Source of the DNA: Nanobdellota archaeon
GTDB lineage: Archaea; Nanobdellota; Nanobdellia; SCGC-AAA011-G17; GW2011-AR18
Length of the DNA: 46,717 nt
Direction: 5' to 3'
Assembly (NCBI GenBank): GCA_038046085.1
Contig: JBBSWW010000010.1
Location: 1 to 46,717 of the forward strand
The translations under genes were made by a program, and so were the position numbers. Position 1 is the first letter of the stretch. Each line of letters opens with the position of its first letter. Positions 11,949-43,066 of the stretch are shown here, one piece after another. The notes under the pieces are model-generated. The model worked only from the letters and a program-made list of their open reading frames with translations. It did not search any database and was not told where the DNA came from.

Positions 11949-13742
11949 TTATTTATTTCTTCCTCTTTGTGCATCATAAGTTATCTTTATTTCATCAATA
12001 AAATTGATATCTGAAACTTTTTTGTCTATACGTAATGAAATAATTCTTGGAAATCTGAGAGAAAACCCTGAAGAGGAATCATTACTAGCTTGAATTTCTT
12101 CAAAAGCAACTTCAATAATAACTTGTGGCTTAACATTTACTGTTTTTCCTTCTGTTGAAATAATTAAAGGTTTCAATAAATTAGTAATTTCTTCAAAAGT
12201 TGTACCTTCCTCTTCTTTTTCCTTTAATCCGCTGCCAACTTTACCAATCTCCAAAAGATTTCCACTACTATCTTGACAGGCAACAGTAAAAGAAGTAAAC
12301 CAACCAGTTCTTTTACCTTCACCATGATCTGCTTTAACAATAACTAGATCCAAAGTATCTAAAATAGGTTTAATCTTAACACCATAACCAACTCTTGAAC
12401 CTGGTTTATACTCTCCAGATAAATTCTTAGCCATAATACCTTCATTGCCTAAAGATAAAGATTCTTCATAGAATTTCTTAGCTGTATCAATATCATCAGT
12501 GACTACTTGCTTAGCTGGCTGAATCTTTTCAGGGATATTAGGAACAATCTTTTCAATCATATTACGTCTTCTAACAAAAGGAGCACTAATCAAAGATTCA
12601 TTATTCAAAGAGATAATATCAAAAACATTAACCATAACAGGAACTTCCTTGACTAATTTCTCAATATCATATTTTCTCTTAATCCTTTGAGAGATATTCT
12701 GGAAAGACAACCATTTATGAGAAACAGGATCAATACCAATAATCTCAGCATCTAAAATAAAATTATCACCTTTAACAGTTTTTTTTATTAAATCAACAAC
12801 ATCAGGAAATTGTTTAGTAACGTTCTCTAATCTTCTAGTGTATAATAATATTTTACCATTATTGTTATGAATTTGTAACCTAAAACCATCATATTTGTAT
12901 TCTAAAGCTAAAGGTTTGCCTACTGTTTCAAAAGCTTCCTCAACTGACTTAACTTTCTGATAAAGCATTACATTTATAGGTTTACCAGCTTTTAGAGTGA
13001 TCTTTTCTAAAGCATTTATACCCTGTTCCTTAATTATTTTAAAAACTTCAGCAAAATCATTAGTTAAATCATAACCATGCTGCACTTTATCAACAAACAA
13101 ATCATATTCTTTACGATTATTATCAGGTAATTTGAATTCATTATTAGATTGTTCATAAGATAATCTTAGTTTATCAGAAAAGAAACACCAAACTATTGCA
13201 TCTCTTAAAGTACTATCTGCAGCACCAGTACGCATCTGTTCTAGAATTAGTCTAACAATAAACTTAGCTTCTAAAGGAGTAGCTGAAGTAAGTAATTCAC
13301 TGATTAACCCAACTTTTTTATTAACAGTACCATCACCTTCCAAATCAGCTAAATCTCTAATATTATTATAAACTAAATCAACAGTAAGCCTTACATTTTG
13401 TAAAGTAACTTGTTTCTTATTTTTAATAAGTTCAAAAGCAACTTCACCAAGATCACCTAATTTAGAGAATAAGTTAACAACAGTTTCTTTAGAATTACCA
13501 GTAGAAGTCTCTAGAGCTTTCATGACAATCTTATCTGAAACACCAATCTTTCTTTCATCCCAAGCTGGAAATACTTTGCCTCTTATTAGGTTAATAAAAA
13601 GTTCAGGATCATTCTCTTTAACAATATCCTTAAGAAGTTTAGTGATGATAAAAGTTTTTTCCAACCTTTTAGAGGTTTTTTCAAGCTCCTCAAAATATTC
13701 AGCAAGCTTTAGATAATCCATTAAAGAAATTGATTCTGTCAT
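11949..13742 (-). CDS. lig: ATP-dependent DNA ligase
   Basis: EYKYDGFRLQIH, LDAEI, EGIMAK, LDLVIV, SLRFPR motifs; true start may be ATG 13721 (MDYLKL). Confidence 0.97.
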   Translation of the reverse strand: MTESISLMDYLKLAEYFEELEKTSKRLEKTFIITKLLKDIVKENDPELFINLIRGKVFPAWDERKIGVSDKIVMKALETSTGNSKETVVNLFSKLGDLGEVAFELIKNKKQVTLQNVRLTVDLVYNNIRDLADLEGDGTVNKKVGLISELLTSATPLEAKFIVRLILEQMRTGAADSTLRDAIVWCFFSDKLRLSYEQSNNEFKLPDNNRKEYDLFVDKVQHGYDLTNDFAEVFKIIKEQGINALEKITLKAGKPINVMLYQKVKSVEEAFETVGKPLALEYKYDGFRLQIHNNNGKILLYTRRLENVTKQFPDVVDLIKKTVKGDNFILDAEIIGIDPVSHKWLSFQNISQRIKRKYDIEKLVKEVPVMVNVFDIISLNNESLISAPFVRRRNMIEKIVPNIPEKIQPAKQVVTDDIDTAKKFYEESLSLGNEGIMAKNLSGEYKPGSRVGYGVKIKPILDTLDLVIVKADHGEGKRTGWFTSFTVACQDSSGNLLEIGKVGSGLKEKEEEGTTFEEITNLLKPLIISTEGKTVNVKPQVIIEVAFEEIQASNDSSSGFSLRFPRIISLRIDKKVSDINFIDEIKITYDAQRGRNK

Positions 13743-13946
13743 AGGATAAAAAGATTGCGGTAATCAAAGGAAAATAATATAAATAAGTAAAAAAATAATA
13801 ATTTAGGAGAAAAATTCTGACTATTTTCAAGAAATTCTATCATAGAGGGACAATTAGTACTAAAATAATCATAACTAACAAGAAGTATATTATTAAGGAA
13901 AATTATATTTATAAATAGAAACCTGTAGTATTATAATATAAATTTA

Positions 13947-14092
13947 AGTTCAATTCATTAATGTTTTATTGGCGTAAAACATTTGGGCAATTGAAATGAA
14001 CTCTTTTTGGGCATGGTTAGTTAGACCAATATTAAATCCATTCAAACTTTGGCGAGTTAAAATGAATTCTAAGAGTAGATAGTGTGAACTAT
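13947..14092 (+). ncRNA. Candidate structured RNA or long 5' leader upstream of ftsZ
   Basis: Nested stems 13949-55/13989-95 and 13960-68/13975-83 (loop TTGGCG); 14000-05/14071-76; TGGT/ACCA hairpin; 14045-48/14055-58 (loop TTGGCG); ATAGT-GTGA-ACTAT GNRA hairpin; TATA-like boxes near 13908 and 13931. Confidence 0.45.
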
Positions 14093-14170
14093 ATTAAATA
14101 CTTTATGGTAGTCGAGCACATACTACTAAAATAGTACAAGGAAAAAAGAGGAGAATCGGGGGAGAAAAAA

Positions 14171-15268
14171 ATGGAGTTTATTATACAAAGCGCATTGGAA
14201 AGTGCACAAAACAACATAAATGAAGACTTAAATATAGGGCATGCTAATATCAAGGTATTTGGTTGTGGTGGTGGCGGAAGCAACATGACAACATGGTTAT
14301 ACAAGAAAGGAGTAAAAGGAGCTGAAATTATTGCTGCTAATACTGATAAACAACACTTAGATATGATGAGTGCTGACAAAAAAATCCTAATCGGAAGAGA
14401 TCTTACAAGAGGACTTGGAGCAGGCGGATATGCTAATGTTGGTATGGAAGCTGCTAAAGAACAATTAGCAGAAATCAAAGATTCATTAAAGAATGCTGAT
14501 ATGGTATTCATCTGCGCTGGAATGGGTGGAGGAACAGGAACAGGTTCAGCACCAGTAGTGGCACAAGCTGCAAGAGATACTGGAGCAATAGTAATTGGAA
14601 CAGTAACAACACCTTTCACAATTGAGAGAGCAAGAGTAGACAAAGCAGAATTCGGATTACAACAATTAAGAAATGTATCAGATACTGTAATTGTAATTGA
14701 CAACAACAGGTTAGTACAGATTGCTGGAAATTTACCAGTACAACAAGCATTCGCAGTAGCAAACGAGTTAGTTGCAACAATGATAAAAGGAATAGTAGAG
14801 ATCATTGCAGTACCTAGCCTAGTAAACTTGGACTACGCAGATGTAAAAGCTATCATGACAAATGGTGGAGTATCTGTAGTTGGAGTTGGAGAGTCTGATG
14901 GTGAGAGAAGAGTTGAAGAAGCAACAAAAAGAGCTTTGACAAATCCTTTATTAGATGTATCATACAAGGGAGCAACAGGAGCATTAATCCATGTAACTGG
15001 CGGACCTGATATGACATTAGATGAAGTAAACAGATGCGGTGAGTTAGTAACTGAATCATTAGATGCTGACGCAAACTGTATCTGGGGTGCAAGAGTAGAG
15101 GATGCAATGAAAGGAAAAGTAAGAGTCATGACCATCATCACTGGAGTACAAAGCCCATATGTTCTAGGAAAAGGAGCATCACCACAGAATGCTAGCCAGA
15201 GAATGGAAAAGTCCAGAACAATGAGCAGAGAACTAGGAATAGATGTAGTACACGGAAAGTATTACTAA
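14171..15268 (+). CDS. ftsZ: Cell division protein FtsZ (archaeal FtsZ2-type)
   Basis: GCGGGGSN, NTDKQHL, GMGGGTGTG tubulin signature, DNNRL, NLDYAD; GGGGGAG upstream. Confidence 0.97.
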   Translation: MEFIIQSALESAQNNINEDLNIGHANIKVFGCGGGGSNMTTWLYKKGVKGAEIIAANTDKQHLDMMSADKKILIGRDLTRGLGAGGYANVGMEAAKEQLAEIKDSLKNADMVFICAGMGGGTGTGSAPVVAQAARDTGAIVIGTVTTPFTIERARVDKAEFGLQQLRNVSDTVIVIDNNRLVQIAGNLPVQQAFAVANELVATMIKGIVEIIAVPSLVNLDYADVKAIMTNGGVSVVGVGESDGERRVEEATKRALTNPLLDVSYKGATGALIHVTGGPDMTLDEVNRCGELVTESLDADANCIWGARVEDAMKGKVRVMTIITGVQSPYVLGKGASPQNASQRMEKSRTMSRELGIDVVHGKYY

Positions 15269-15276
15269 CTTCATGC

Positions 15277-15380
15277 TTTTAGGGCAAATGTGTAGAATTC
15301 TTCTACCCCCTCAAACGCCCTAAAAAACCCTATAATGGCTGGGACGAAACAAAATAGTTCCAGCCTTTATTTATTTTTTT
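15277..15380 (+). terminator. Two stem-loops and T-tract downstream of ftsZ
   Basis: TTTTAGGGC/GCCCTAAAA (15277-85/15317-25) enclosing GTAGAA-TTC-TTCTAC; GGCTGGGAC/GTTCCAGCC (15337-45/15357-65) followed by TTTATTTATTTTTTT. Confidence 0.6.
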
Positions 15381-16662
15381 ATTGAATATAAACTAATTTT
15401 TGACTTCTACCTTCTCCTTCTATTTTAAATTTTCCAGGATAGATATCAGATATTGCTTTTAAGTGCGAATTATCATATAATTTTTTTATTAAATGTCTTA
15501 CTGTGCTTCCTTCAAAATCCCTAGCTCTTACATTAATTAATTGTTCTTCACTCAAATCTAACATCTCTTCTAAATACCACTTTATTGCTTCTTTACTTTT
15601 TTCTATAGCATCTTTTCTTTTCCAAAATTCTTTAGGAAGTCTATAAAACTCCCATGGTTTGAATTGAGAATAAGCATCACCTAATGCCTCAACAGCACAA
15701 CCCCTATAAGATATTATCAACATTGGATTTAATGACGCTCTAATAAAATCTTCTCTAGTTACTTTAATTGCTTGTTCTGTCCTTAATCCTAAATGTTCTT
15801 CAACAAGCCATCTAGTAGCAGTCCTAGCATTATCTCTTCCTTTATCTCCAGCCCAATAAGATCTTGGAACTTTTGAAAACTCCCAATGTTTAAAACTATT
15901 AGGATAAACATCAAGAACAGCTTTTACAGGAGAATCATCATAAACAGTTCTCAGCATATGAGCTAAACCTCTTTCTTCAAAATCATAACTTGTTAAAATA
16001 TTAGCCTTATCTGCAGGCATTCCTAATTCTCTCTCAAGCAAAAATCTTGTAATAATGCGAGCATTTCTACTATTATCCTTAAAGAACCTACGAGGAAAAG
16101 TTGATAATCCCAATCTTACATCTTGATATGTTTCTATAACACTCTTTTCAAGAGCAGAATCCATATCCAATTGAAAAACAGAACTATGTTCTAAAGGATG
16201 AAATTTCATAACTAACCTTAACTGTCCAATTATCATATCAAGATTCTTACGAACATAATCAACAGTCAAGTTAGATATCAATGAAGAACTACCATTATTA
16301 ACAAGATGAGTAAGATAAAACGTTTCTTCAGCAGAAAGATGTTCAGAAAGAAAAACTAAAGCTTGATGATTATCACTACCTAATTGGCGTTCTCCATCCT
16401 CGTTATTATTGGAAGAATTCCTTAACTCTAAACGTTTAGATAAAGAATCAATAGAGATAGCATTAACTAAAGCATCCCTAACAGGAAAATATCTAGAAAT
16501 AACATCAGTAGTAATTCCATAAACTTCATGTTCTGCAACACCACCAACATTATCAACCCTATTTTTAACACGAACCCTTGAAATGTCACGAGCTCTAACA
16601 AACTTATCATCAGGAACATCAGAAAAATTTAAAATCAAATCGACAAAATCAAACCTATCCAT
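15379..16662 (-). CDS. Repeat protein with about three DUF4046-like units in the C-terminal half
   Basis: Repeated unit P..[FY]W....NA..A..WL.EE.L.L......F....L..ML...Y.......A..D.YP..FK.WEF. Confidence 0.65.
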   Translation of the reverse strand: MDRFDFVDLILNFSDVPDDKFVRARDISRVRVKNRVDNVGGVAEHEVYGITTDVISRYFPVRDALVNAISIDSLSKRLELRNSSNNNEDGERQLGSDNHQALVFLSEHLSAEETFYLTHLVNNGSSSLISNLTVDYVRKNLDMIIGQLRLVMKFHPLEHSSVFQLDMDSALEKSVIETYQDVRLGLSTFPRRFFKDNSRNARIITRFLLERELGMPADKANILTSYDFEERGLAHMLRTVYDDSPVKAVLDVYPNSFKHWEFSKVPRSYWAGDKGRDNARTATRWLVEEHLGLRTEQAIKVTREDFIRASLNPMLIISYRGCAVEALGDAYSQFKPWEFYRLPKEFWKRKDAIEKSKEAIKWYLEEMLDLSEEQLINVRARDFEGSTVRHLIKKLYDNSHLKAISDIYPGKFKIEGEGRSQKLVYIQ

Positions 16663-42544: not shown

Positions 42545-43012
42545 TTAACTAAACCAAGATTCTTTATAAAAAGTTGTTTTTACATTTCCTTCATCATCTA
42601 AAACTTCTATCTTTTCAGGCCATTCAAAATTATGAAGTTCTGTCTTCCTTGATGTTAAAAATTCTACTTCTCTGTCATACATGAATCTATCAAATTTTTT
42701 TCTCATCTCATCACAATGGCCAAAACCACAACCACTATGATTCTTCTTTTTAGGTTTATATTCAGGTATTTTTCTTCCCTTCTCTACTGGAGACCTAATA
42801 TCAATATAAGCCCTTATTCTAGTTCCTAATTCATAATTAAATTCCAAACCACATCTTAAACTTTTAACATGAGGATCATCAGCTTCCACTTCTAAAAGCT
42901 TAGCAATAGGATATTCTCCCTCGTGAGCGCTTTCAGTTGTAATAACTATAGGTTTAAGATCATTAATATTAACTACTCTTGCTTCAATAGTCTTATAGAA
43001 ATCATCACCCAT
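42545..43012 (-). CDS. Hypothetical protein
   Basis: Open frame from MGDDF; HSGCGFGHCD segment; no family recognised. Confidence 0.65.
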   Translation of the reverse strand: MGDDFYKTIEARVVNINDLKPIVITTESAHEGEYPIAKLLEVEADDPHVKSLRCGLEFNYELGTRIRAYIDIRSPVEKGRKIPEYKPKKKNHSGCGFGHCDEMRKKFDRFMYDREVEFLTSRKTELHNFEWPEKIEVLDDEGNVKTTFYKESWFS

Positions 43013-43066
43013 GAAAGAATTTATGAAAACAGATATATAAAGATTATTGTAGTAAACATTCAATAA

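Follow-up and report, generated by a model that had tools for sequence, protein, structure and literature searches.

The 428-bp gap directly upstream of ftsZ in a 46,717-bp stretch of DNA from a Nanobdellota archaeon (JBBSWW010000010.1, positions 1-46,717; the whole stretch is referred to as the window, and all positions are those of the window) contains a conserved, putatively regulatory module of this cell division gene. The module itself is well supported and comprises, in this order, a promoter-like site directed towards ftsZ (P1), an array of hairpins with UUGG loops, a second promoter-like site directed backward into the array (P2), a Shine-Dalgarno site and ftsZ. We propose that this module may work through RNA, in the form of a sense/antisense pair, a reading that we consider quite possible, if somewhat short of probable; the existence, the ends and the pairing of both RNAs, and likewise an effect on ftsZ, we only infer from the sequence. 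The original prediction had taken the region for an undescribed ncRNA or cis-regulatory leader linked to cell division. Conservation, covariation and the absence of an Rfam match agree with its core idea of a structured element without coding function that goes with ftsZ and repeats one loop, whereas the convergent promoter-like sites suggest more than a simple leader.

A hairpin array is conserved upstream of ftsZ

When 61 related genomes were searched at the DNA level with the gap sequence, a stretch of the gap was matched in 8 other genomes at 70-93% identity; weaker short matches of the same search were confined to the AT-rich left part. Inspection of the ftsZ upstream regions, as suggested along with the original prediction, located the conserved part directly upstream of ftsZ in 9 of 9 loci, whereas the DNA ligase gene that borders the gap on its left in the window is adjacent in only 4 of the 9. 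As the ligase neighbor changes and the ftsZ neighbor is constant, the element travels with ftsZ and not with the ligase.

A wider set of 97 non-redundant Woesearchaeota upstream regions was compiled from these 9 loci, 80 species-representative ftsZ loci and 15 loci from a pattern scan, minus 7 exclusions (4 regions shorter than 250 nucleotides (nt) and 3 near-duplicates). The pattern, two TTGGCG copies 8-38 nt apart (TTGGCG-N8-38-TTGGCG), matched in 167 of 240 genomes of the order. Of its matches, 30 loci were fetched: 15 precede an ftsZ homologue of the same strand by about 80-235 nt, 1 lies inside a distant paralogue and 14 have no ftsZ in the available flanks. All relatives are metagenome-assembled genomes, and the assembly to which the window belongs consists of 40 contigs and is 81.7% complete. 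Going by such sequence matches, the element is widespread in Woesearchaeota.

Motif copies were counted in the interval from -320 to -60 before the ftsZ ATG of the 97 regions. At least two copies of TGGCG or TGGGC were present on the ftsZ strand in 63 of the regions and at least three in 43, compared to 0/97 on the opposite strand at either threshold. In total, 130 copies of TGGCG stood against a single CGCCA on the opposite strand, and 56 copies of TGGGC against no GCCCA. The other regions carry TGGT arrays (11), YGGACA arrays (3) or none or an unclear one (20). Each locus has 2 to 6 copies, which are found in loops as well as in unpaired linkers. TTGGCG is the common form overall, and the window carries both TTGGCG and TTGGGCA(A). 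Among 117 hairpins with a stem of at least 5 bp, 83 have 6-nt loops, 78 of which are exactly UUGGCG, and 13 have a 4-nt GGGC loop closed by U-A pairs. In 173 of 186 instances UGG is preceded by U, and the loops therefore fit the YUNR (U-turn) pattern.

The conserved element spans about 13897 to about 14127 (~230 bp) and is wider than the interval 13947-14092 marked originally. Its first hairpin has an inner stem of two fully complementary 9-nt arms, AATGTTTTA (13960-13968) and TAAAACATT (13975-13983), which enclose the loop TTGGCG (13969-13974); the outer stem is formed by AGTTCAATTCA (13947-13957) and TGAAATGAACT (13992-14002), complementary to 91%, both values being those of a repeat search. 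The motif TTTGGGCA occurs at 13982-13989, within the 3' internal loop of hairpin 1, and again at 14006-14013 in a single-stranded linker, a position at which a motif is kept in relatives. A small TGGT/ACCA hairpin follows at 14014-14028, whose TTAGTTA loop is also kept in relatives. In hairpin 3, ATTCA-AACT-TTGGCG-AGTT-AAAA-TGAAT (14040-14067), an inner AACT/AGTT and an outer ATTCA/TGAAT stem surround the loop at 14049-14054. The motif copies are spaced by 14, 24 and 42 nt. An ATAGT-GTGA-ACTAT hairpin at 14079-14092 is part of an inverted repeat around P2. All of these elements, namely the two hairpins with a TTGGCG loop, the two TTTGGGCA copies and both small hairpins, were present at the positions originally given. 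Two points of the original prediction are to be corrected. TTGGCG is the commonest loop in the wider group, but the close relatives of the window mostly have TTGGGCA(A) at these positions, and the outer ATTCA/TGAAT stem of the second TTGGCG hairpin is broken in the closest relative, L002.

In the 801,723-bp genome to which the window belongs, TTGGCG occurs 60 times on both strands taken together, and a whole-genome check found no further copies of the motif in a hairpin loop. A second FtsZ paralogue of 45% identity (contig C39:16506-17627) follows an open reading frame (ORF) resembling FKBP-type isomerases; its promoter is of the ordinary close kind, with a TATA box about 29 nt before the ATG, and no array is present.

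A subset of ftsZ loci without the array (L045, L048, L055, L069, L078, L084, L092, also L047 and L068) carries a different element, a strongly conserved GTATACCAGTATAC that directly precedes a TATA box and lies about 60-110 nt from the ATG of ftsZ; this set falls among the 20 regions without a clear array. The subset consists of Woesearchaeota ftsZ orthologues (about 72% identity) whose proteins begin with MGM or MAM. The GTATACCAGTATAC element may represent a different control of the same gene.

The stems covary around constant loops

To determine whether the flanks of the motif are complementary beyond their base composition, the 3' flanks of 185 motif instances were exchanged between loci, which preserves the T-rich/A-rich composition. 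The mean uninterrupted stem measured 5.8 bp compared to 3.50 +/- 0.11 bp after swapping (maximum 3.83 in 200 swaps), and 63% of the instances had a stem of at least 5 bp compared to 22% after the swap. In addition, a covariance model was built from the window and its nearest relative with a structure drawn by ourselves. In 59 loci it had 23 matches, every one of them on the ftsZ strand and located where expected. In the corresponding alignment 89.4% of the cells were paired, as opposed to 61.9 +/- 1.5% in shuffles, none of which reached 89.4% (0/500), and pairing fell to 35-52% when the partners were slid. Changes on both sides occurred at 31 of 32 pairs. Helices 1-3, which form hairpin 1, were paired to 87.5-96.9% with both-side changes at 18 of 19 pairs, helix 4 (TGGT/ACCA) to 87.5% with both-side changes at 4 of 4, and in hairpin 3 the inner helix to 88.9% and the outer helix to 71%. 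This alignment is fitted to the model and hence biased towards the structure, a bias of which the flank-swap test is free.

RNAalifold predicted no pairs from 17 sequences that had simply been aligned with MAFFT, because the loops are misaligned there. The stems expected to covary if the element is structured did so, with the loops constant in both tests. As the stem sequences vary and the loops are constant, the element is probably recognized as a folded single strand, that is, as RNA rather than as sites in double-stranded DNA. The decisive support beyond chance is this comparative evidence, conservation and covariation in relatives.

Two convergent promoter-like sites frame the array

Among tandem genes in the genome of the window, the word TTTA[TA]A is most frequent at 25-34 nt upstream of the ATG, with 88 of 165 hits falling in these two bins, and most mRNAs of this genome therefore look leaderless. 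A promoter model was derived from 130 sites of this genome, with an A-rich B recognition element (BRE) 5' of the TATA box and a median score of 7.7 in the training windows. With this model 61 array-bearing regions were scanned, separately for a P1 zone, 20-80 nt before the first motif, and a P2 zone, from the end of the array to 18 nt before the ftsZ ATG. In the P1 zone the best sites scored 9.17 on average on the plus strand and 4.23 on the minus strand, and the plus strand was higher in 52 of 61 loci. In the P2 zone this was reversed, with 4.46 on the plus and 10.84 on the minus strand, the minus strand being higher in 57 of 61 loci. Sites scoring above 6 in the P2 zone were found in 54 of 61 loci on the minus strand and in 14 of 61 on the plus strand. 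An earlier, stricter promoter model gave the same picture.

P1 of the window is a promoter-like site with an A-rich BRE and a TATA box on the plus strand (13899-13916, TTTATA at 13908-13913), which points towards ftsZ, scores 10.2 and is kept in relatives; the best minus-strand site in the same zone scores below 10.2. By spacing, a sense start is predicted at about 13938-13941. P2 (14092-14109), which reads ACCATAAAGTATTTAATA on the minus strand, points back into the array. At the distance where a start would be expected lies a start-site-like word, TTCTAA at 14067-14072 (TTAGAA on the minus strand), which gives a predicted antisense start at about 14069-14070. Of the 56 loci in which P2 scores 6 or more on the minus strand, 44 have a YTAGAA-like word that begins 27-31 nt past the first T of the minus-strand TATA box, and in 42 it begins at 28-30 nt. 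This spacing is that expected between an archaeal TATA box and the start site. By eye, ATAGAA is seen at the same distance from many P1 sites. The P2 consensus also occurs elsewhere in the window, at 43033-43053 on the minus strand, 24 nt before the ATG of a minus-strand gene (a leaderless-type example, 43011-43053), which supports the direction assigned to P2.

The P2 TATA box is flanked by an inverted repeat, read by eye in the window as GTAGATAGTGTG (14075-14086) with CACATACTAC (14117-14126). In 75 loci the arms around this TATA box matched each other better than arms exchanged between loci did (complementarity 5.83 compared to 5.39 +/- 0.12, with a maximum of 5.66 in 100 swaps), a modest effect.

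ftsZ itself is an exception among the leaderless-looking genes of this genome. Its ATG (14171-14173) is preceded on the plus strand by the Shine-Dalgarno-like runs GAGGAG (14148-14153) and GGGGGAG (14158-14164), a G-rich run that is kept in relatives, and usually no plus-strand promoter lies nearby. The simplest reading of the Shine-Dalgarno-like run and the lack of a near plus-strand promoter is that ftsZ is transcribed from P1 and that the array is situated in its leader. Convergence of P1 and P2 in turn points to a sense/antisense pair rather than to a simple leader. A scan for sigma-70 promoters and intrinsic terminators yielded 5 sites compared to 4.7 expected; these are bacterial models and uninformative for an archaeon.

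By eye, a conserved AAAATATA(T/G)TTT word is visible about 20-45 nt upstream of P1 in L067, L075, L037 and L038, and in some loci it lies within the palindrome CTGCAAA-N6-TTTGCAG. This word could be an operator for P1.

A possible sense/antisense pair

In the mechanism that we propose, ftsZ would be transcribed from P1 (TATA box 13908-13913) with a leader that, at about 230 nt, is unusually long; the 5' half of this leader would fold into a row of hairpins with UUGGCG or UUGGGCA loops of the YUNR type. P2, located inside the DNA of this leader, would fire on the opposite strand from about 14069-14070 and give rise to an antisense RNA of about 130-180 nt, covering exactly the hairpin array and presenting loops that read CGCCAA or UUGCCCAA. 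Sense and antisense RNA would then kiss loop to loop at several hairpins simultaneously, and this kissing together with the collision of convergent polymerases may lower or time the output of ftsZ mRNA or of FtsZ. Two features by which cis-antisense systems are recognized are found here at the sequence level: a promoter on the opposite strand that would direct an RNA across the stem-loops (57/61 loci by score, 42/56 by start-site spacing), and loops of 5-8 nt with a YUNR pattern (83/117 hexaloops, 78 UUGGCG). The predicted antisense RNA of the window, taken as 14070 to 13925, folds into three hairpins with -26.2 kcal/mol (z-score -3.50), and none of 200 shuffles was as good.

A number of observations weigh against this proposal. 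A cis-antisense pair alone does not explain why the loop sequence is identical throughout, nor does it explain the motif copies in unpaired linkers, for which a common ligand acting in trans fits better. In some lineages the motif is CGGACA, which is not YUNR, and in many loops of the close relatives a 4-nt GGGC closure is possible, which is small for kissing. Stems are shorter than 5 bp in 37% of the motif instances, including both TTTGGGCA copies of the window. P2 of the window itself scores only 4.6, and the gene calls behind the promoter model are crude and come from one genome. As to folding, an energy no better than that of shuffled controls would, by the original prediction, speak against the element; the region 13947-14092 folds better than its shuffles on the minus strand (z-score -3.33, 1/200 shuffles as good) but not on the plus strand (z-score -0.84, 43/200 shuffles as good), and the whole sense leader is no better than its shuffles either (z-score -0.62). 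One metatranscriptome run, which contained 8% of the sampled words, yielded contigs that cover only 14519-14741, inside ftsZ; with RNA coverage limited to this part, the run says nothing either way about the element.

Finally, the tests for the strand that folds disagree with each other. Isolated mismatches in strict stems (3 G.T, 18 A.C, many of them falling at one homologous position) favor wobble pairs on the minus strand, and a looser scan (51 G.T and 79 A.C observed, 285 and 207 in the shuffled control) also leans to that strand, whereas the model-fitted alignment shows the opposite, with 25 G.U and 13 A.C. The energy of single hairpins was lower on the plus strand in 128 of 185 instances; the mean fold z-score was -3.07 on the minus and -1.40 on the plus strand. 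Folding on both strands is expected of a sense/antisense pair, but mixed signals are no evidence for such a pair.

In the energy-model fold of the full leader, GAACTC (13998-14003, in the 3' outer arm of hairpin 1) pairs with GGAGTT (14173-14178, at the start of ftsZ). This could constitute an alternative structure that joins the array to translation initiation.

Alternative readings of the array

A less likely but still serious alternative is that the array is bound by a factor acting in trans, in the simplest case an RNA-binding protein, which recognizes UUGGCG/UUGGGCA in loops and linkers, either on the ftsZ leader or on a separate small RNA, and sets translation, stability or read-through of ftsZ in a manner similar to CsrA and its GGA motif. 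One short motif in 2 to 6 copies per locus, in loops and unpaired linkers alike, is what such a factor would require, and the motif is uniform within a locus but varies by lineage (TTGGCG, TTGGGCA, CTGGTAA/TTGGTA, YGGACA), the pattern that co-evolution with one ligand would give. In 16 of 63 loci the last hairpin is followed by a T run of at least 5, weakly informative by itself, which might be part of an attenuator. However, no candidate protein was identified and the genome of the window (81.7% complete) yielded no CsrA (PF02599); the lack of other motif copies in hairpin context means that there is no regulon, and a backward P2 with fixed spacing is left unexplained. Clearly less probable again is that only the minus-strand RNA matters, as an independent small RNA that is transcribed from P2, divergently from the ftsZ side, and exposes CGCCAA/UUGCCCAA loops to a target other than the ftsZ leader, with which its overlap would be incidental. 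P2 is indeed the best-defined promoter of the region, the fold z-scores are better on the minus strand (50/63 loci compared to 17/63 for the plus strand, and also in the window), the mismatches in strict stems favor minus-strand wobble by 18 to 3, and 44 of 63 loci have, ahead of the first hairpin, a run of at least 4 A that reads as U on the minus strand, a terminator-like sign that is again weakly informative. On the other hand, the wobble evidence is contradicted by the model-fitted alignment, and P1, which points into the array, is conserved to the same degree. The element also strictly keeps its orientation and position with respect to ftsZ where the other neighbor changes, which argues for a link to ftsZ, and the rest of the genome showed no complementary target carrying the motif. 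The single coincidence, in the gene of transcription factor E (tfe, contig C36 of the window's own genome), where GCCCAA and CGCCAA are located between the TATA box and the ATG, is not conserved.

Two further readings are less probable still. That the motifs are DNA operators for a transcription factor at the ftsZ promoter region, and the hairpins incidental palindromes, is improbable. Short repeated motifs between promoter-like sites, the nearly palindromic TTGGGCAA, the covarying inverted repeat around the P2 TATA box and a resemblance of the T-run/GGCG/A-run sites to known protein sites, possibly including that of eukaryotic E2F, agree with it. However, the stems differ within a locus and between lineages with complementarity kept, which a DNA-binding protein does not need; in addition, the copies all have one orientation at variable spacing (14, 24 and 42 nt in the window), and the array is located downstream of both predicted start sites. 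Very improbable, and put forward by analogy, is a role of the loops as sensors of free uncharged tRNA 3' ends, which would tie division to amino-acid supply. On the ftsZ strand every lineage variant contains a UGGN reading (UGGC, UGGG, UGGU, UGGA), the complement of the tRNA 3' NCCA, and the UGGN bulge of T-box leaders in bacteria pairs with uncharged tRNA likewise; the antisense RNA with its NCCA loops would be a built-in decoy. Both the CGGACA variants and the absence of a specifier-like element speak against it. If true, division coupled to amino acids would meet a sensible need of a host-dependent DPANN cell.

Known families and rejected identities

No Rfam family matches the array, in the window or in related loci, as the original prediction had anticipated. 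In the window segment 13400-14500 the sole hit up to E = 10 was a 15.7-bit match to snoR116 outside the element, and six related loci searched over their whole length gave no hit in the array up to E = 1. ARAGORN found no tRNA in the window. Full-text literature searches and Rfam yielded no description of the module.

The RNA of the signal recognition particle (SRP) and RNase P RNA were dismissed as identities of the array, as the models RF01857 and RF00373 match nowhere in the genome and the number of hairpins varies by lineage, unlike in those RNAs. That the archaeal models for both RNAs are unmatched in this 40-contig, 81.7% complete assembly is an observation in its own right; either gene may have diverged too far or lie in the part that the assembly lacks.

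A small protein gene was also rejected, with no conserved ORF and with indels between relatives that are not multiples of three. The only ORF of at least 30 amino acids in the conserved part of the gap is a 31-residue frame with a TTG start on the minus strand. On the plus strand no ORF of at least 30 amino acids is present in 13743-14170, nor does a ribbon-helix-helix gene of the cdrS type precede ftsZ. Against a replication origin, which would have inverted origin recognition boxes around an AT-rich unwinding element beside orc1/cdc6, speak the single orientation of all motif copies, the neighboring ligase and ftsZ genes and the fixed orientation and distance to ftsZ. Mimicry of an anticodon loop or of 16S rRNA and a T-loop-like 5' end were discarded because the motif varies by lineage and the proposed partners do not, or because pairing failed.

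The tfe gene as a target in trans was given up as a coincidence, since in 30 related loci only TT(A/G)CCCAAA recurs and the CGCCA part does not. A separate conserved word, AAAAnTTTTCTTATTATTnnnGTGTAGTrAA, lies 40-60 nt upstream of the tfe TATA box in L137-L143, L148, L153, L154, L158 and L162 and shares ATTATTGnnGTGTAGT with the region right of P2. This shared sequence may be a site of a common regulator or a promoter element.

The gap that contains the module occupies 13743-14170, between the gene for an ATP-dependent DNA ligase on the minus strand (11949-13742) and ftsZ on the plus strand (14171-15268). By crude gene calls it is the largest in the window, the runner-up measuring 307 bp, and the earlier remark that a gap of such length is exceptional here is confirmed. 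On the other side of ftsZ, a 427-residue ORF (15379-16662, minus strand) consists of several repeats of about 70 residues with recurring ...F(K/S)xWEF... words.

Comparison with known systems

To our knowledge, little is understood of how archaea control their division, and next to nothing in the case of DPANN archaea. A module ahead of ftsZ that is both conserved and defined by sequence offers a concrete handle on this control, and it is recognizable by its order of P1, 2-6 UUGG-loop hairpins, backward P2, Shine-Dalgarno site and ftsZ. If the antisense reading is true, an order of ultra-small archaea would limit or time FtsZ with the loop chemistry by which plasmids count their copies, using several loops at once, an RNA design arrived at convergently across domains.

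A dedicated regulatory element directly upstream of an archaeal ftsZ is found in the cdrS-ftsZ2 operon of Halobacteria; there the regulator is encoded by a gene, whereas no protein-coding gene is present in the ftsZ upstream gap here. CsrB/RsmZ sponges and leaders bound by CsrA likewise contain many copies of a short G-rich motif in loops and linkers, but the motif of the present element is UUGGCG/UUGGGCA instead of GGA, and the element is single-copy and belongs to one gene. We know of no repeated identical loops in StfZ, an antisense RNA of E. coli that is complementary to ftsZ mRNA. StfZ is proposed to set the FtsZ level (PMC9628754), and the likeness consists in an antisense RNA, predicted in our case, from the region just upstream of ftsZ. 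StfZ differs in being bacterial and unrelated in sequence, whereas the archaeal module has two predicted convergent promoters that frame a hairpin array.

The loop itself has a counterpart in plant viruses. In long-distance interactions of tombusvirid RNAs, the same 5'-UUGGCG-3' loops kiss a complementary apical loop of the YGCCA type, as supported by disruptive and compensatory mutants (PMC4820102). This interaction, as presented there, joins the two ends of one viral RNA for translation and involves neither a sense/antisense pair nor an array. The likeness suggests a loop that is good at kissing and not common descent.

By analogy, the module most resembles the antisense copy control of plasmids, although it belongs to no known family. 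The title of a 1998 paper by Asano and colleagues, cited in PMC10724649, names a 5'-rUUGGCG-3' loop motif for the target of the ColIb-P9 Inc RNA. YUNR loops form U-turns and speed the first contact between an antisense RNA and its target, and the CopT hairpin of plasmid R1 has such a loop (PMC4485353, PMC10798244). With ColIb-P9 Inc RNA/repZ and R1 CopA/CopT the module would share an antisense promoter inside the leader, here a predicted one, loop-loop contact and a YUNR loop. There is no sequence homology to either plasmid system, and the module, in contrast to them, is known from sequence alone. It differs from both in its chromosomal location in front of a cell-division gene, its archaeal promoters and its 2 to 6 motif copies, some of them unpaired, in place of one or two recognition loops.

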